Part shown: positions 56,452-63,441 of the stretch, one piece after another | Layout of the letters: each line of letters opens with the position of its first letter | How positions within the stretch are numbered: the first letter of the stretch is position 1 | DNA from: Candidatus Saccharimonadota bacterium | GTDB lineage: Bacteria > Patescibacteriota > Saccharimonadia > Saccharimonadales > JACDBH01 | Direction: 5' to 3' | Assembly: GCA_013694995.1 (NCBI GenBank) | Contig: JACDBH010000002.1 | Span: forward strand, 17,425 to 81,424 | DNA: 64,000 nt | The notes under the pieces: model-generated | What the model was told of the DNA's origin: nothing | The model's database searches: none | Seen by the model: the letters and a program-made list of their open reading frames with translations, nothing else | Program-made: the position numbers and the translations under genes

Positions 56452-56668
56452 AGGGTAGAGGGTTAAAGATAAAACGTCGTTAGTAAGCACAGCTGTACTT
56501 AAATCTAAATTCTTGGCCCAACGCCTAGAGAGCAATAAGGGTAGTGCCCCGTTACCCTGCGGGTGTTCATATTATGTTTATATTGTAGGTTGCAGTAAAA
56601 AAACATATAAAAATATAATTATATAAAAAAGCAAATATTGCAAATAGGGAAGGATAAGGTAGGGGTGT

Positions 56669-56708
56669 GGAAAAATCGTGAAAACCATATAGAAAGCAAG
56701 TTTTCACG
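56669..56708 (-). terminator. Intrinsic terminator on the minus strand inside the long spacer
   Basis: CGTGAAAAC (56677-56685) / GTTTTCACG (56700-56708), perfect 9-bp stem. On the minus strand it is followed by ATTTTTCC. Confidence 0.5.
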
Positions 56709-56836
56709 GTAAATAGCAAATACTTAGGCAATATGCTTATAAAATACTATGCAGGTGCTTAAGGCTCTAAATTAAAGTAATGTGAACCGCCTATGCAAAT
56801 AATCCTAAGTTATAAGCATAAATACTATGATAATAG

Positions 56837-56859
56837 TTAAAACTCCCCTGTAGTAGGGG
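56837..56859 (-). terminator. Weak hairpin + U-run on the minus strand downstream of the ATPase gene
   Basis: CCCCT / AGGGG 5-bp stem (56845-56859). Minus-strand tail AGTTTTAA. Confidence 0.3.
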
Positions 56860-56889
56860 TATAGTAAATCATTTACAAATGATATATAA

Positions 56890-56917
56890 GAGTCGTAAAA
56901 TATACATTGTGCGACGT
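56890..56917. other. dif-like 28-bp imperfect palindrome (11-6-11) with TGTATA/TATACA centre
   Basis: GAGTCGTAAAA-TATACA-TTGTGCGACGT. The inner 9-nt arms are complementary at 7 of 9 positions. The central hexamer equals that of E. coli dif as I recall it. Confidence 0.25.
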
Positions 56918-57014
56918 TCTTAATATACCTGCTTTCATTCCCCTAACACTTTCCTAATTACTGGCATTTACTTATTTATTTTTAATTTTTAATTCTTTTT
57001 GCCAATCACCCGCT

Positions 57015-59606
57015 CTAACGCAAGTGGATGATTTCTTCAGTTTCGTTTAAGTGCTTCGGCTGTATGTCTTTAGGTTCAGTATGTTCGTTATTTGTATGGT
57101 TCTGGGCAGCATGTTTTTTATGACGTGATCGAGTGCGTTTATGTTTGGCTGGTGGTTCAGTCTTACTATTTAGCTGAGATTCTACAGCATGGTTAATGAT
57201 AACCCGGGACAGAGTCGCTGCCTTGCCTGTTTCTTCGTGTGGGATTGGACGGTGTTCTTGTAACTGAGGCCTGACAAAGCTGCCCGGAGCTGGGCCAAGC
57301 TTTTTAGCCATGTTTTCCCTAACCCGGGCTTCGACTTCTGCACGGCTTTGGGCATAGTGTTTGCGGGACAGGGCAACAATTTCCTCGGTGTAATCCGCTT
57401 GCACTGGCGGCTGGTTTAAACTGGAACCGGAAAAAGGCGGCGACTTCTCACCATTGATTGTCATGGTACTTACGAAAAATCGATTATGAAGCTGAATCAA
57501 ATCGCCGGGTTCGAACTGCGGGGCGAAGTATTTGCTTAAGAACGAGGCATCATCGGCGCCGACGCGAAAGCTGACCATAGAGCCTACGTTACCAAAAACA
57601 GCGTCTCGGACTACCGGATCCATTTGTGAAACATACTGATTGGCGATGCTTAGATTGAGTCCGTATTTGCGGGCTTCGCTTAAAATAACTGCGAATGAAT
57701 CAGTTGCAAAGTTCTGGAATTCGTCAACATAAAGGTAGAACGGCTTACGTTCGCTCATGCCCACATTGGCCCGGCTCATGGCTGCTAACTGAATCTTAGT
57801 GACCATCAATGCTCCCAATATCGCTGCATTGTCCTCGCCTACAAGGCCCCGGCTTAAGTTAACCATCAATATCTTGCCTTCATCCATAAGTTTACGGATA
57901 CTGAAAGTGCTTTTAGGTTGTCCTACGATGTTTCTAATCATCGGGTTGGCCGTGAAGGCGCCGACTTTATTTAATACCGGTGCAACGGCTTCGGCGGCAA
58001 ACTTATCATTCCAGCTTGCGAACTCTGTCACCCAGAACGTCTTTACTACTGGATCGGTAAGGTATTTAATCACATCGTCTCTGAAGGCTTTCTCTGTCAG
58101 CATGCGGGTAATATCGAGCATAGTTGACTCGGGATAGTCTAGTAGCGCCAGGATGGTATAGCGCAGGATATACTCCAACCTTGGGCCCCAGCTATCGAAC
58201 ATGCGTTTCAAAACGCCTACTAACTCAGAGCTTATGTGATTCTTTAGGCTTTGGTCGGTGACTTCTAACGGATTAAAGCCAATCGGGAATTCCATATCGG
58301 ACGGATTAAAGTAAACCACGTCGTTTAAACGACGTTTTGGGATGAAGCGGAGCATATTTTGGGCATAATCACCGTGCGGATCAATAACACAGAAGCCCTG
58401 GTCGTAATAAATGTCGGATAAGGTCAAAAGTTCAAGCAAGCCGGTTTTGCCGGTGCCAGTCTGCCCAATAACGTAAATATGCCGGCCACGGTCGACACGG
58501 TTCATACCGAAAATTGTGTTAGTACCACGGAAGTTTGTGACACCAAAAAGGCTCAAATCCTGCTCGTTGTCGCCATCTATGACCGGTATATTGGATGGCG
58601 GTTCGGCCGTCTTGGTGGTAGCCCAGACAATATTGGGGGTTTCGACAGAAGTATGCGGCAGGTGAAATAGGCTCGCCAGCTCCTCTATATTCAATATATA
58701 TCCGCTATCGATAAAGAAACGGGCGCGATATTCGGTCAGTTTATCCATGCTAAAACTTGCTGTCTTTCCTTGGAAGCCATTCAAGTTGGTGGTATTAAAC
58801 TGCTTGAAGGCGCCGTGGATAGCCTGCATGCGCAGTTTTGCCATCTGTTGGTCGTGTCCGGCGTAAACTATCCGTATTTTTACCTGATAGCCTAATTTGA
58901 CCCCCTTCTCTTCTATGGCACGTATACGGGTCTTGTCACGCTCGCTTATTTCCGTTGCTCCACTCTTACTGCTCGCTTCAGGTGGCTTTACCAAGGCACC
59001 GAAGGCTTGACCGACAAATGCTGCCCCGGAGCCAGCAAATATGCCTCCCCCGCCCTGGATCTTACGGATCATTTTACTGCCGCGCTTATGCCAGTCATCA
59101 CTTATCGGTCGGGCCAGAATCTGAATCCAAACTTCTTCGTCAGGTTGATCGAGTTTAGCCAACGTGGCTGTTATTGCCGCCAGCGGGTCGACTTCAAAAC
59201 TCGGAAAAGTTTTAATAGGTATTGTTTCGTGGTCAGTCAGAACCAATTCGCTGGTATAGATTACAGATTGATCTAAGCTGCGGGTTGAATAATCATCCGG
59301 TTGTTCATATATCTGCACCGTTGGGTATTGGGCGTAAAGCTGGCCTTCTACGAATGGCTGTAGATGCTTGGGAGTCCAGATATAAAAGCGGATGCGTTGG
59401 CTCATAGCCACCATCTCTAATGAAATATGATCCTGCATGCCACCCTCAAACCGTACTTCCCTTTTTGTACGCAGTATTCCGTGTAAAGCCGCCAGCATCT
59501 GCTCGGCTGCCAGTTCCTTCTTATCGTTGGTGCGTGGAATCTCCAACAGGAGCAGTATGTCCCCGTTTGATTTTCTGCCGGTATTTTTAGTTCGTCGTAA
59601 TTTCAT
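57015..59606 (-). CDS. VirD4/TraG/TraD-like (type IV coupling protein family) ATPase with large N-terminal domain
   Basis: 863 aa. GQTGTGKTG Walker A, VIDPHGDY, FYLYVDEFQNF Walker B and LSIANQY motifs. About 380 aa N-terminal region with no clear TM helices. Basic C-terminal tail. Confidence 0.8.
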   Translation of the reverse strand: MKLRRTKNTGRKSNGDILLLLEIPRTNDKKELAAEQMLAALHGILRTKREVRFEGGMQDHISLEMVAMSQRIRFYIWTPKHLQPFVEGQLYAQYPTVQIYEQPDDYSTRSLDQSVIYTSELVLTDHETIPIKTFPSFEVDPLAAITATLAKLDQPDEEVWIQILARPISDDWHKRGSKMIRKIQGGGGIFAGSGAAFVGQAFGALVKPPEASSKSGATEISERDKTRIRAIEEKGVKLGYQVKIRIVYAGHDQQMAKLRMQAIHGAFKQFNTTNLNGFQGKTASFSMDKLTEYRARFFIDSGYILNIEELASLFHLPHTSVETPNIVWATTKTAEPPSNIPVIDGDNEQDLSLFGVTNFRGTNTIFGMNRVDRGRHIYVIGQTGTGKTGLLELLTLSDIYYDQGFCVIDPHGDYAQNMLRFIPKRRLNDVVYFNPSDMEFPIGFNPLEVTDQSLKNHISSELVGVLKRMFDSWGPRLEYILRYTILALLDYPESTMLDITRMLTEKAFRDDVIKYLTDPVVKTFWVTEFASWNDKFAAEAVAPVLNKVGAFTANPMIRNIVGQPKSTFSIRKLMDEGKILMVNLSRGLVGEDNAAILGALMVTKIQLAAMSRANVGMSERKPFYLYVDEFQNFATDSFAVILSEARKYGLNLSIANQYVSQMDPVVRDAVFGNVGSMVSFRVGADDASFLSKYFAPQFEPGDLIQLHNRFFVSTMTINGEKSPPFSGSSLNQPPVQADYTEEIVALSRKHYAQSRAEVEARVRENMAKKLGPAPGSFVRPQLQEHRPIPHEETGKAATLSRVIINHAVESQLNSKTEPPAKHKRTRSRHKKHAAQNHTNNEHTEPKDIQPKHLNETEEIIHLR

Positions 59607-59699: not shown

Positions 59700-60749
59700 T
59701 TACTTTTCGTCTGTGAGTGAGTAGGTGGCCTTGGCGACTCGTTTAAACTGGGGTTTACCCTGTAGGTTCAAAAGGATAGTTGTCTCTTTGACATAGCGGT
59801 TCTTAAGTACACGCTTGACGATTTCGTCACGATGCAGTGGCTCGCCTGCCTTTTTTAGTACCTCGGTAATAATATCGGCGACGGTTCCCTTCTTATAGCC
59901 CCATTCTTTAAGAGCGTAGATACCACGGCCGATTAATATAAAGCGGTCATCTTTAATAAGCTCGTTATGGATAGCCTGGGTAGTGACGTCCTTGCGCTTA
60001 AAGCTTGAGTCTTTAATTGCAGCTGCAATCTCATTAAAGTGCATGTGTTTACCGTTTTCGTGCAAAATAACATAGATTTTATCGCGAATGTTCTTAGGAT
60101 TGACCATTGGCCATTTAATTAGGCCCCAGCGACCATTAAGGTTGGCAATTTGCTTGCTGATGCTAGCTAGTGCCCGGGTGTGCGCGACGCTTTTGTCTTT
60201 GACGGTCTCGGCTACTATTTCAATCCCGGCCGGTACACCGATTTTCTTAATCGCTTCAACTGTCGCTGTTACCTGATCTTTAAGGGTGTTCTTCTCATGT
60301 TCGCTGGCAATGGCTACAGCATGGTAAAAAAAGTCGTTTTCATCAAGTACGCTAAGTTTTGGGCTGAGGTTGGCTAAGAATGAGACCTGAGCTTGGTCAA
60401 TCTTGCTATTAGCTTTAGTTAAACGTGCGCTCAAGTCACTGACACGAGCAGCCATGCCTAAGCGATGTAGTTCCTGAACCAGTGTTTCCTGAAGCTTTAA
60501 AACATTAACAAAGTCACCCTTCTGAGCACTAGCCTTAAGCTTAGTTATAACTGCTTTCTCTAGCTGACGAACGCGTTCACGAGTAATACCCAAGAGTTCG
60601 CCTATTTGTTCCAATGTCTCTTTGCGGTCAAATAATCCAAAACGACGTGAAATAATTTCGCGCTCGCGCTCGCGCTCGATGGTATCAAGCACACTTCGAA
60701 CGACAGATTCGATTTGGGGTTCCGCAGCTTTAGGAGTAGTTTCGGCCAT
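59700..60749 (-). CDS. Sigma-70 region-4-like HTH fused to two HARE-HTH-like domains
   Basis: 349 aa. REREIISRRFGL..TLEQIGELLGITRERVRQLEKAVITKL is region 4.2-like. MHFNEIAAAI...DDRFILIGRGIYALKEWGY and PLHRDEIVKRVL...FKRVAKATYSL are HARE-like. Confidence 0.7.
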   Translation of the reverse strand: MAETTPKAAEPQIESVVRSVLDTIEREREREIISRRFGLFDRKETLEQIGELLGITRERVRQLEKAVITKLKASAQKGDFVNVLKLQETLVQELHRLGMAARVSDLSARLTKANSKIDQAQVSFLANLSPKLSVLDENDFFYHAVAIASEHEKNTLKDQVTATVEAIKKIGVPAGIEIVAETVKDKSVAHTRALASISKQIANLNGRWGLIKWPMVNPKNIRDKIYVILHENGKHMHFNEIAAAIKDSSFKRKDVTTQAIHNELIKDDRFILIGRGIYALKEWGYKKGTVADIITEVLKKAGEPLHRDEIVKRVLKNRYVKETTILLNLQGKPQFKRVAKATYSLTDEK

Positions 60750-61149
60750 TTGAAGGTATTTCTCGCTTTCCTGTTAGTATAAATAACACCTATGCTAATG
60801 CTATTTTAACAGCTATATTTTTAAATGTCAAACATATTTCGCCCGTGTTTTTCTATAACTTATTGTAGCATTGAATAGCCAAGTATGCACAAATTGTTTA
60901 TGGTAAATTACTAAAACACTTTTTTGCTAATCTGTAGAACCCGTGGACATCTGTTGTAAATTTGTTAAATATGATTTTTTAGTAATGCAATTTTATCCAA
61001 AGTTATGTCCTGCCCTCTCCCTCAACAAAGAAGCCTGACTTTTTCTATCTCCGGCCAAAGAACCAATGCTACTTACTATGGACAACCAGAGTGAGACAAA
61101 GCTGTTGGACTGCGTTTTTAGTGGCCTGGCTCTTATTAAAAGAAAAGAC

Positions 61150-63441
61150 TCACTTTTTCTTAGTAAACTTCCGCTTTACAAACCGTTTTTTAGCCGGCGC
61201 TTCATCCAATAACTTTTGAGCGGCCTTTTTATCCAAAGTAGTTGGGTCTATATCCTTAGGTATACGGGCATTTTTCTTGCCATCCGTAACGTACGGTCCG
61301 TAAGGACCACGGAGGATTTTAATCTTACCGAAGTCGGCGACGTTACGTTCGGCAATTTGTACCTGCTTGTCCGCAATAAGTTGCCGGGCTTCCGATTCGG
61401 TAATAGTAAATGGGCTTAAGTCTTTGATTGAAACATACATCTTTTCCACTTGGACATACGGTCCAAAGCGGCCCAGGTCTGCTGTAATTGTCTTGCCGTC
61501 AGGAGTTGTACCAACTGTTCGTGGTAGATCAAACATCGGCAGGGCTTGCTCTAAAGTAACATTGTCCATAGTGGCACCATCTGGCATCGGCGCGAAGGCC
61601 GGCTTTTCTTCTTCTGCTGTTTCGCCTCGTTGAAGCATCGGACCATATCGCCCGAAACGTACGACAATTGGCTTACCAGATTTAGGGTCGGCGCCAAGTG
61701 TCCTGGACTGGCTAGTTTCCTCACGGGTTACATCGGCGGAAGCTTTAATAAGCGGCTTAAAAGCGTCGTTATAAAATTCACTAATCATTTTATTCCATTT
61801 GGTTTTGCCGTCGGCAATGTCGTCGAATTCTTTCTCGGCCTTCACGGTAAATTCGTAGTCGACAATAGGCATAAAATACTTGGTTAAAAAGTCAGTCGTA
61901 ATTTCGGCGACTGGCGTTGGCAGTAATTTGTTCTTGTCAGCTCCTGCAGTAACGGTCTCTTTACTTTTGGTAATCTTGCTGTTTTTTAATTTGAGGCTGT
62001 TGATTTCGCGCTGCTCACCCTCCAAATCCCTTTTTTCGATATAACCGCGGTCCTGGATGGTCGAGATTGTTGGTGCGTAGGTACTAGGTCGGCCGATCCC
62101 CATCTCTTCCATGGCTCTAACTAGGGTCGCTTCAGAATAGCGAGCCGGTGCCCGGCTAAAGGTCTCGGTGGCAGTTATGCTTTCGGCTTCGACTGCCTGG
62201 CTTTGTTTGAGAAAAGGTAGCAAAGTATCGTCCTTACCCCCGCCGTATACCTTTAAAAAGCCATCGAATATTAATATTTCGCCCTTAGCTACAAATTGTT
62301 CTTTACGGTTGCTAACAGATATAACAATCTCAGTTCGATCGACTTTGGCAGGTGCCATTTGACTAGAAACCGCCCGCTGCCAGATAAGCTTGTAGAGCTT
62401 TTTCTGTTGTTCGTCATTACCTGCTGAGTTTTTACTGAAATCGGTAGGACGGATGGCTTCGTGGGCTTCTTGTGCCGAGCTGTTTTTGGTCTTATATTGC
62501 CTAACTTGATGGTAGTCTTTGCCGTAAGAACTTATAATAAATTTTTCAGCAGCTCCGATTGCCTGTCCAGACAATATGGTACTATCGGTGCGCATATAAG
62601 TTATAAGTCCGGATTCGTACAAACGCTGGGCGAGCGACATGGTCTGACGGACAGAATAACCTAAACGACGGGAAGCTTCCTGCTGCAGGGTGCTGGTTGT
62701 AAAAGGTGCCCCTGGGTTGCGGGTCCCGGGTTTTTTCTCGACGCTGATTACCTTAAATTCAGCGCCTATGCAAGCAGTAAGGAATTCTTCAGCCTTGGCA
62801 GACGAATCCGGTTTGGTATTGAGTTCGGCGGTGAAGTTCTGTTTAGATGCTAAAAAGTCACCGGTAATCCTAAAGCTACTTAAAGCGGTAAAATCTTTAA
62901 TTTCCCGCTCGCGTTCAACGATAATTCGTACAGCCACGGACTGGACCCGACCGGCGCTCAAACCCGCCCGAACCTTTTTCCATAATACAGGCGACAATTC
63001 ATAACCGACCAGCCTGTCCAGTACACGCCTGGCCTGCTGTGCGTCAACAAGCCGAAGGTCTACAGTTCGTGGCTTTTCAATCGCTGCTATAATTGCCGGC
63101 TTTGTAATTTCGTGGAATACGATCCGTTTGGTAGTTTTGGGATTAAGGCCGAGAGCAATGCATAAATGCCAGGCAATAGCTTCGCCTTCGCGGTCTTCAT
63201 CACTTGCCAGCCAGACATCATGGGTTTTAGATAACTTTTTAAGGTCACTGATAACCTTCTTTTTATCCGGTGAAATCTCATAAGTAGGCTCAAAATTCTT
63301 GGACTTATCGATACTCAAGCCTTTTTTAGGCAAATCACGTATGTGGCCAAAGCTGCTCCGGACAGTAAAATCCTTACCTAGGTATTTCTCTATCGTCTTG
63401 GCTTTAGCCGGGCTCTCTACTATTACTAAGTTCTTACTCAT
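61150..63441 (-). CDS. topA: DNA topoisomerase I (Cys-less C-terminal repeats)
   Basis: 763 aa. TOPRIM LVIVESPAKAKTIEKYLG and active-site GLITYMRTDS. C-terminal GRYGPM/GRFGPY/GPYGPY repeats and a Lys tail. Confidence 0.96.
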   Translation of the reverse strand: MSKNLVIVESPAKAKTIEKYLGKDFTVRSSFGHIRDLPKKGLSIDKSKNFEPTYEISPDKKKVISDLKKLSKTHDVWLASDEDREGEAIAWHLCIALGLNPKTTKRIVFHEITKPAIIAAIEKPRTVDLRLVDAQQARRVLDRLVGYELSPVLWKKVRAGLSAGRVQSVAVRIIVEREREIKDFTALSSFRITGDFLASKQNFTAELNTKPDSSAKAEEFLTACIGAEFKVISVEKKPGTRNPGAPFTTSTLQQEASRRLGYSVRQTMSLAQRLYESGLITYMRTDSTILSGQAIGAAEKFIISSYGKDYHQVRQYKTKNSSAQEAHEAIRPTDFSKNSAGNDEQQKKLYKLIWQRAVSSQMAPAKVDRTEIVISVSNRKEQFVAKGEILIFDGFLKVYGGGKDDTLLPFLKQSQAVEAESITATETFSRAPARYSEATLVRAMEEMGIGRPSTYAPTISTIQDRGYIEKRDLEGEQREINSLKLKNSKITKSKETVTAGADKNKLLPTPVAEITTDFLTKYFMPIVDYEFTVKAEKEFDDIADGKTKWNKMISEFYNDAFKPLIKASADVTREETSQSRTLGADPKSGKPIVVRFGRYGPMLQRGETAEEEKPAFAPMPDGATMDNVTLEQALPMFDLPRTVGTTPDGKTITADLGRFGPYVQVEKMYVSIKDLSPFTITESEARQLIADKQVQIAERNVADFGKIKILRGPYGPYVTDGKKNARIPKDIDPTTLDKKAAQKLLDEAPAKKRFVKRKFTKKK

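Follow-up and report, generated by a model that had tools for sequence, protein, structure and literature searches.

An Orphan VirD4/TrwB-Type ATPase with a DUF8128 Domain and Its Conserved sigma4/HARE Neighbour in Patescibacteria

A gene for an orphan ATPase related to the coupling proteins of type IV secretion systems (T4SS) was analysed in a 64,000-nucleotide stretch of the genome of a Candidatus Saccharimonadota bacterium (assembly GCA_013694995.1, contig JACDBH010000002.1, positions 17,425 to 81,424 of the forward strand). This whole stretch is called the window hereafter, and positions are given in its coordinates. The open reading frame (ORF) occupies 57015..59606 on the minus strand and encodes 863 amino acids (aa) from an ATG start, the stop-to-stop frame being only 2 codons longer upstream. 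The product of an ORF also deposited from a Candidatus Saccharibacteria metagenome-assembled genome (GCA_020063845.1) is identical. The protein joins a domain catalogued as DUF8128 to an ATPase of the type IV coupling protein (T4CP) kind, and the adjacent upstream gene encodes a protein with sigma70 region 4 and HARE-HTH domains (sigma4/HARE hereafter). The sigma4/HARE protein, DUF8128 and the ATPase make up a unit which is conserved across classes, the last two being fused in Saccharimonadia and split in Parcubacteria.

Results

Organization of the Locus

The features of the locus are listed below with the evidence on which each was placed.

57015..59606, minus strand: full ORF, DUF8128 plus VirD4/TrwB-type ATPase, 863 aa
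58572..59567, minus strand: DUF8128 (PF26449) alpha/beta domain, residues ~14-345 (precomputed annotation, AlphaFold2 (AF2), Foldseek)
58989..59057, minus strand: Gly/Ala-rich hydrophobic insertion in DUF8128, residues 184-206, QGGGGIFAGSGAAFVGQAFGALV (19-residue Kyte-Doolittle mean 1.46, low per-residue model confidence (pLDDT), short helices)
57564..58511, minus strand: T4CP-type nucleotide-binding domain including the all-alpha domain, residues 366-681 (Pfam, PDB match, hhalign, Foldseek)
58440..58466, minus strand: Walker A, GQTGTGKTG, residues 381-389
57924..58253, minus strand: all-alpha domain region, residues ~452-561 (AF2 helices, TrwB alignment)
57708..57737, minus strand: Walker B, YLYVDEFQNF, residues 624-633
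57015..57386, minus strand: disordered mixed-charge C-terminal tail, residues 741-863, ending ..EEIIHLR (pLDDT <50, composition)
59700..60749, minus strand: sigma70 region 4 plus HARE-HTH (RNA polymerase (RNAP) delta-like) partner, 349 aa (Pfam, NCBIfam)
61150..63441, minus strand: topA (Pfam)
60803..60831, minus strand: promoter-like site 5' of the sigma4/HARE gene, TTGACA-17-TAAAAT, TG-extended

The four motifs quoted in the initial annotation were all located, GQTGTGKTG at residue 381, VIDPHGDY at 407, YLYVDEFQNF at 624 and ANQY at 655, and the N-terminal segments LLLEIPRTNDKK and AEQMLAALHG were placed at residues 19 and 34, respectively. The sigma4/HARE and topA neighbours were as claimed, both on the minus strand. 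On the plus strand, a dcw cluster (FtsL-like, FtsI, MraY, FtsW, MurG, FtsQ-like) is convergent with the ATPase gene. The ten largest other ORFs of the window correspond to housekeeping genes (SecA, aminoacyl-tRNA synthetases, CTP synthase, a Pif1-like helicase and others), and no paralogue of the ATPase was found in the 64 kb. The 10 kb past the window, inspected on the 100.5-kb contig of GCA_020063845.1, hold a 168-aa ORF, dprA, pth, der, a pseudouridine synthase gene and a response regulator gene. The earlier statement that T4SS, relaxase and pilin genes are missing from the vicinity held for the large ORFs of the window and for these 10 kb, in which no conjugative module follows the region.

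Between the convergent FtsQ-like and ATPase genes lies an AT-rich, non-coding spacer of 563 nt (56452-57014), long for a reduced genome, in which no Rfam or tRNA match was found and only generic promoter-like and terminator-like matches were seen.

The ATPase Domain

The C-terminal part of the protein scored above the Pfam gathering score for TrwB_AAD_bind (PF10412; residues 375-665, 37.3 bits against 20.5), DUF87 and T4SS-DNA_transf, and just under it for TraG-D_C. The TraD/VirD4 equivalog models of NCBIfam gave weak partial matches only, far under their cut-offs (49.6 versus 366 for SXT_TraD, 41 versus 250 for CD1115 and 32.8 versus 648 for TOL TraD). TrwB was the best sequence match in the PDB (E 4.7e-5), with alignment of Walker A, of the DE of Walker B and of the conserved Q, and the alignment spanned the all-alpha domain. 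When a profile of the family was compared by hhalign with the proteins of plasmid R388 (taken from NC_028464), TrwB was matched at 96.3% (E 1.6e-9, 259 columns) and TrwK/VirB4 at 2.9%. A profile of 227 C-terminal domains matched TrwB at 97.8%, the Gram-positive VirB4 TrsE of pGO1 at 89%, TrsK at 55% and TrwK at 12.8%.

The AF2 model of this half was confident over approximately residues 400-620 (pLDDT 80-95), and the helices at 452-561 reached the same values. Foldseek retrieved Cagbeta, TrwB and DotL with the ATPase part, and HerA more weakly. The catalytic residues did not vary among 65 aligned homologues or among the full-length orthologues (73 of 73). The ATPase motifs therefore survive proper alignment with TrwB, and the coupling-protein-type P-loop ATPase with an all-alpha domain proposed at first is borne out by Pfam, the TrwB alignment and hhalign. 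We firmly assign the ATPase to the VirD4 family, as a member of a Patescibacteria-specific lineage defined by DUF8128 and by linkage to sigma4/HARE. The FtsK motor, alpha and gamma models of Pfam (PF01580, PF17854 and PF09397) did not match the protein.

The long basic tail of the initial annotation exists as a tail, but it is not basic as a whole: residues 741-863 carry acidic residues (15 E, 1 D) as well as basic ones (11 K, 11 R, 11 H), and contain a basic cluster. At its very end, R863 was invariant and L862 and E857 near-invariant among the aligned homologues. A terminal motif [IVL]x[IVLF][RHK] ends 43 of the 73 orthologues and also some distant relatives, the alternative ending being a poly-Arg/Lys run. 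It is possible that the tail with its terminal motif is a docking peptide, which would recall the tail of TraD. In TraD, the tail binds TraM. No association was found between the C-terminal motif and sigma4/HARE adjacency; the group L079-L083 has no adjacent partner and yet ends in ..IRFH. The split ATPases of Parcubacteria (L086:9353-11185, L087:9302-11029 and L088:9263-11074) have a treble-clef zinc finger (PF23477, zf_Tbcl_2) at their end in place of a disordered tail.

The DUF8128 Domain

The N-terminal domain, first described as uncharacterised, proved to be already catalogued in Pfam as a domain of unknown function, PF26449. This name is given in the precomputed annotations both for the identical protein (P0001) and for the gene in locus L001; searches for "DUF8128" or "PF26449" returned no papers. 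When 1.84 billion representative proteins were searched by phmmer with residues 1-365, 2,294 clusters were obtained, 175 of them at E <1e-30. The matches fell into two length classes, one of ~800-1100 aa in which the domain is fused to the ATPase, and a tight class of ~420-435 aa which stops exactly where the domain does (..PP.LP).

With a diverse alignment, AF2 folded the N-domain at pLDDT 84 and a predicted template-modelling score (pTM) of 0.80, as an alpha/beta structure with ferredoxin-like units. A low-confidence insertion at residues 185-221 holds the Gly-rich segment, so that what had been read as a Gly-rich linker between domains lies in the model within DUF8128. In a Foldseek search of the PDB with this model, 13 matches were significant and all were TrwK/VirB4 chains of the R388 T4SS (E 1.2e-5 to 1.3e-4, probability 1.0, template-modelling score over the query (TMq) 0.39-0.45, ~400 aligned columns), whereas all other matches had E >1.8e-3. 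TrwK was also the top match of the full-length model, over ~900 columns, and the collinearity of this alignment suggests that the part of VirB4 covered by DUF8128 is the N-terminal region.

Profile comparison did not reproduce this likeness. A DUF8128 profile of 395 sequences reached only 0.1-0.2% in hhalign against a profile of nine VirB4 N-terminal regions of the MPF-T (mating pair formation) type, pGO1 TrsD and TrsE; no profile match was obtained with TrwK or with PDB sequences, and Pfam found no PF03135 (CagE_TrbE_VirB) in the protein. The C-terminal domain, used as a positive control, matched the VirB4 C-terminal domain profile at 93%. It may be that DUF8128 shares the VirB4 N-terminal fold, as the predicted structure suggests.

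Some Saccharimonadia-type relatives of 380-464 aa (P0121, P0217, P0231 and P0248) consist of DUF8128, the tail and an ..IKLH end, the whole ATPase domain being gone. Two full-length paralogues related to these forms, P0148 and P0155, have altered Walker motifs (GEASTGKS; YLYIDDF in P0148). DUF8128 and the tail may thus act independently of an ATPase, or the ATPase-less forms may be decaying copies. Another DUF8128-bearing relative, P0263 (812 aa), has no recognisable Walker A or B and is probably an inactivated paralogue.

Membrane Anchoring

No transmembrane (TM) helix is present in the window protein, in agreement with the initial annotation: its maximum 19-residue Kyte-Doolittle mean, in the Gly-rich segment, is well below the 2.47 of MraY. 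Nor is there coding potential upstream of the ATG. Solubility is nevertheless not supported as a property of the family, since most orthologues and the examined distant relatives carry an N-terminal hydrophobic anchor. Among 81 Saccharimonadia-type gene copies, 66 of the 80 informative ones have a conserved hydrophobic N-terminus of ~27-30 aa (consensus M.I.SW.I..LLQWYVW.P.V..L.YLTWRNYRK), including the copy of a Nanosynbacter genome (L041). In the distant members, fused and stand-alone alike, a strong hydrophobic segment followed by basic residues precedes the start motif LLEI..P...E..PK in all N-termini that were read. The short basic N-terminus was limited to the window's own subclade, 14 gene copies of which 2 (L001 and L002) are the window's gene.

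Judged from these N-termini, the TM-less state is a derived one: the membrane anchor is ancestral and was lost in the window's subclade. By the positive-inside rule, DUF8128 and the ATPase would be cytoplasmic. In relatives, the place of the Gly-rich insertion is taken by a helix (..W[FL]..L..ALW.PP) that is amphipathic or hydrophobic, and plainly hydrophobic in some of them; the insertion may contact the membrane.

A Module Conserved across Classes

The neighbourhoods were compared in two samples, Saccharimonadia and Parcubacteria-type, of the 80 loci each nearest the query; cross-class cases came from separate protein searches. In Saccharimonadia (53-85% identity), the sigma4/HARE gene was directly upstream on the same strand at 73 of 77 informative loci, within ~160 nt in 66. 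The topA gene was upstream in 63 loci, dprA in 53 (3-9 kb upstream), and a convergent dcw cluster was present in ~48. In Parcubacteria/Paceibacteria (including Portnoybacteria and Pacebacteria) three separate genes follow one another in the order sigma4/HARE, TM plus DUF8128, T4CP-type ATPase, in a secA/secDF/efp neighbourhood. At the 80 metagenomic loci of this type the ATPase gene was directly downstream of the DUF8128 gene in 69/72 informative cases and none were fused; the sigma4/HARE gene was directly upstream in 62/71, and within 1.5 kb in two more. On a Berkelbacteria contig (L091), the sigma4/HARE gene lies two genes downstream of the DUF8128-ATPase gene, on the same strand. Across four lineages, the sigma4/HARE proteins share 34-37% identity over >300 aa. 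The link to the DNA-binding neighbour that had been pointed out in the window is thus real and deeply conserved, in Saccharimonadia, Parcubacteria and Berkelbacteria.

In the window, the sigma4/HARE and ATPase genes are separated by a 93-nt gap on the same strand, with no terminator-like hairpin in it. Given this and the strong promoter-like site before the sigma4/HARE gene, co-transcription is likely.

The association with topA and the terminus, to which a functional meaning had been given, is confined to Saccharimonadia; in other classes the genes lie beside secA/secDF/efp or corA. Contigs of Doudnabacteria and Kuenenbacteria have a small unannotated ORF before the DUF8128 gene, beside corA. 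The polarity switch stood in part: the change of gene orientation at ~57 kb is real, but the GC-skew reversal at ~58 kb is weak (<=0.03 absolute) and reverts past dprA. In pGO1 (L181, 31499-33601), a T4SS operon encodes a topoisomerase, topB/TrsI, between VirB4- and VirD4-like genes, a parallel to the topA adjacency that is probably coincidental.

Sigma regions 2 and 3 are missing from the sigma4/HARE protein (~350 aa), whose HARE-HTH scores just under the TIGR04567 cut-off (40.4 versus 42 bits); against PDB sequences sigma region 4 alone matched. Further members of this family were found at L086:6771-7838, L087:6901-7968, L088:6792-7871 and L091:9701-10729. The counterpart in S. epibionticum ML1 by synteny, SEML1_0294, is misnamed "RpoS", and no paper on the family was found. 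An apparent sigma4/HARE-T4CP fusion of 1,344 aa (L016:7632-11663) was rejected as an artefact, a 398-N scaffold gap bridging two genes. Directly upstream of the Berkelbacteria DUF8128-ATPase gene (L091:293-6348) are three co-oriented large genes with products of 1188, 250 and 570 aa, the 250-aa one with a weak DUF5663 match; they may encode lineage-specific partners.

No T4SS or relaxase gene was found in any inspected neighbourhood (~170 loci, several classes), and 2.9 million viral contigs held no relatives. These results bear on the reading of the gene as an ordinary coupling protein of an integrated conjugative element (ICE) or plasmid, which the weak partial matches to the TraD and VirD4 equivalog models would suggest. 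The reading is refuted for the inspected region, which is free of relaxase, VirB4, VirB6 and pilin genes. The NCBIfam scores also lie far from their cut-offs, the housekeeping synteny is kept over ~80 species, and the family was classed as core and Patescibacteria-enriched (Wang et al. 2023, PMC10633639). We consider it firm that the ATPase lineage had a membrane anchor ancestrally and does not belong to an ICE.

The Orthologue in S. epibionticum and Published Surveys

The window gene belongs to the "orphan" T4CP homologues already described in Patescibacteria (Quinonero-Coronel et al. 2025, PMC12102498). In the survey of 3,035 genomes, 5,713 VirD4-type T4CP homologues were counted in 2,918 (~96%), only 148 of them near virB4, together with VirB4 in 2,417 genomes and very few relaxases; the t4cp homologue of S. 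epibionticum ML1 was noted as non-essential and maybe exapted (PMC12102498). In the parts of the two papers that were read (PMC12102498, PMC10633639), neither DUF8128 nor the sigma4/HARE linkage nor split versus fused architectures were found described.

By synteny the ATPase ORF is the orthologue of SEML1_0293. The order dprA ... topA - sigma4/HARE - ATPase gene is shared, with a hydrolase gene, topA and dprA coming upstream of SEML1_0293/SEML1_0294 as in the window, and the NCBI name and Pfam content (PF10412, PF01935, PF12696) also match. A position far from virB4 and membership in a core, Patescibacteria-enriched family are further shared features. Downstream of SEML1_0293 are GNAT and Cas9 genes (PMC10633639). 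In transposon sequencing (Tn-seq), SEML1_0293 was non-essential at three of three time points, with normalised reads that dropped approximately four-fold (5817, 2940, 1372; PMC10633639); this drop indicates a mild deficit at most. The T4SS cluster SEML1_0006-0019 is essential and has no recognisable coupling or relaxase proteins (PMC10633639). Also essential is SEML1_0142, a second T4CP-like paralogue ("TraM recognition domain", 1019 aa, P-loop at 381-800; PMC10633639). The small ORF ahead of it, SEML1_0141, is likewise essential, and SEML1_0142 has an unassigned N-region of ~380 aa.

It is possible, although rather unlikely, that the protein is a genuine coupling protein serving in trans the chromosomal T4SS, of MPF-FATA-like type. 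DUF8128 would then dock on a VirB3/VirB4/VirB8-like complex and a non-essential substrate, DNA or effectors, would be fed to the channel. The T4CP type of the ATPase is in line with this, and the only likeness of the DUF8128 model is to the VirB4 N-terminal region. In R388 that region reportedly contacts VirB3 and VirB8, according to work attributed to Mace and colleagues in 2022. The S. epibionticum cluster is without a recognisable coupling protein of its own (PMC10633639), and t4cp genes are often away from virB4 (PMC12102498). Several observations point the other way. The orthologue is non-essential while the T4SS is essential (PMC10633639), T4CP homologues are more widespread than VirB4 (2,918 versus 2,417 genomes; PMC12102498), and the module was never beside T4SS genes at the ~170 loci. 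The likeness to the VirB4 N-domain has no sequence-profile support, and the essential paralogue SEML1_0142 is an equally good candidate.

The initial annotation had raised a segregation role and, from the polarity switch, a terminus-associated one. A role as an FtsK-like translocase in segregation or terminus resolution was considered with this switch, the convergent dcw cluster of ~48 Saccharimonadia loci and the slight GC-skew change near the switch. It is effectively excluded: S. epibionticum ML1 has a canonical and essential FtsK, SEML1_0096, with 4TM, alpha, beta and gamma domains, while SEML1_0293 is non-essential (PMC10633639). In the window protein, neither an FtsK_SpoIIIE Pfam match nor a gamma domain is found, the weak GC-skew reversal does not persist past dprA, and the dcw/topA context is absent from other classes and gives way to GNAT and Cas9 downstream in S. 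epibionticum ML1.

A further alternative is the cytoplasmic motor of natural transformation, a functional substitute for ComFA that would pull incoming single-stranded DNA (ssDNA) through ComEC with sigma4/HARE or DprA handling the DNA. T4CPs are ssDNA-dependent ATPases, and Saccharibacteria are naturally competent via ComEC and type IV pili. In 53 Saccharimonadia loci dprA lies within the 3-9 kb range given above; however, many bacteria have dprA next to topA, no dprA is seen in the contexts of Parcubacteria, Berkelbacteria and the ABY1 type, and there is no linkage to comEC or comFC. The S. epibionticum ML1 tables annotate no ComFA, and the orthologue is non-essential there, likewise comEC (PMC10633639). 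On balance such a motor appears improbable.

The counterpart of the sigma4/HARE gene, SEML1_0294, is essential in S. epibionticum ML1 (PMC10633639). This essentiality and the tight conservation of the operon would be in line with an ATPase that acts together with sigma4/HARE on RNAP or on the nucleoid rather than in transport, for instance in a remodelling role analogous to that of the delta-HelD pair of Firmicutes, and the joining of sigma region 4 to an RNAP-delta-like HARE-HTH in the partner is in keeping with this. Such a role would nonetheless be highly improbable for a ring-translocase-type ATPase with an ancestral membrane anchor, which is unlike known RNAP recycling factors, and the ATPase is non-essential where its partner is essential.

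Discussion

Canonical T4CPs (TrwB of R388, VirD4, TraD, Cagbeta and DotL) share with the family the RecA-like nucleotide-binding domain, Walker A and B and the inserted all-alpha domain, with hhalign values of 96-98% against TrwB and Foldseek template-modelling scores over the target (TMt) of 0.41-0.48. The family differs from them by the extra DUF8128 of ~330 aa, which precedes the nucleotide-binding domain and follows the membrane helix in those proteins that have one, by having one hydrophobic segment or none instead of two TM helices, by its lack of T4SS or relaxase linkage, and by falling under all curated TraD/VirD4 equivalog cut-offs. The layout, a TM segment in some, a large alpha/beta N-domain and a C-terminal P-loop ATPase, is that of VirB4 (TrwK) and of VirB3-VirB4 fusions, and the C-terminal domains are detectably homologous (93% against the VirB4 profile, 89% against pGO1 TrsE). 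The C-terminal domain is however nearer TrwB than TrwK (97.8% versus 12.8%), the N-domains have no profile similarity (0.1%), and PF03135 is missing.

TraJ of pIP501, a T4CP without a TM domain, is likewise a coupling-type ATPase without its own membrane anchor, which would need a partner or peripheral binding; unlike the window gene, its gene is part of a conjugative T4SS operon, and TraJ lacks a domain like DUF8128. FtsK/SpoIIIE and HerA are members of the ASCE P-loop superfamily as well, DUF87, the central domain of HerA, scored above its gathering score and weak HerA matches were seen in Foldseek, but the FtsK alpha/gamma domains and a PF01580 match are lacking, no HAS-barrel was detected, and a canonical FtsK coexists in Saccharibacteria. 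The published orphan T4CPs are of the same family as the window gene; the difference is that the window's subclade lost the N-terminal hydrophobic helix.

We tentatively favour, at a confidence that falls a little short of calling it probable, a three-part module spread throughout Patescibacteria and exapted from conjugation, rather than an obligatory coupling protein of the essential Patescibacterial T4SS. A T4SS-independent role is preferred because T4CP homologues are commoner than VirB4 and almost never adjoin T4SS genes, and because the orthologue is non-essential. In this model the ATPase would assemble, like other coupling proteins, as a ring at the cytoplasmic face of the membrane and would spend ATP on translocating a nucleic-acid or nucleoprotein substrate or on handing it over. 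A membrane-proximal docking layer would be formed by DUF8128, and the sigma4/HARE protein would be a DNA-binding adaptor, analogous to TraM for TraD and TrwA for TrwB. TraD-TraM and TrwB-TrwA are known pairs of coupling protein and adaptor.

Several points weigh against the exapted three-part module. In S. epibionticum ML1 the sigma4/HARE gene is essential but the ATPase gene is not; the partner must therefore have another, possibly unrelated role, for example in transcription, and the operon link may not mean that the two proteins are physical partners. In Doudnabacteria, in Kuenenbacteria and in one Saccharimonadia group the linkage is missing. The predicted VirB4-like fold of DUF8128 would fit docking on the inner-membrane complex of a T4SS, which points to the T4SS-coupled alternative. 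Finally, the window protein is without a TM helix, so that its own association with the membrane is indirect and presumed.

A more specific version of the favoured module may be considered, although it is distinctly unlikely in our estimate: the trio may be a T4SS-independent, Patescibacteria-wide DNA-handling machine, for example the missing cytoplasmic motor for DNA uptake in these auxotrophic epibionts, or a nucleoprotein translocase that is tethered to the membrane and that an essential RNAP-like DNA-binding factor loads.

The family itself was already known, being catalogued in Pfam and noted in the literature as orphan T4CP homologues. New here are the derived TM-less state, the cross-class sigma4/HARE-DUF8128-ATPase module, and the VirB4-like match of the AF2 model of DUF8128. 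Patescibacteria represent a large share of bacterial diversity, with a T4SS that is essential for epibiotic growth and has no in-cluster coupling protein, and with near-universal orphan T4CPs. The module partner, the ancestral topology and the possible docking domain turn a vague remark about exaptation into concrete hypotheses, all of them open to testing in S. epibionticum, which is genetically tractable. Should the VirB4-like fold of DUF8128 reflect true homology to the VirB4 N-terminal domain, the family would represent an intermediate that has survived between the VirB4 and VirD4 ATPase lineages, and the fold would bear on how the two signature ATPases of T4SS diverged.

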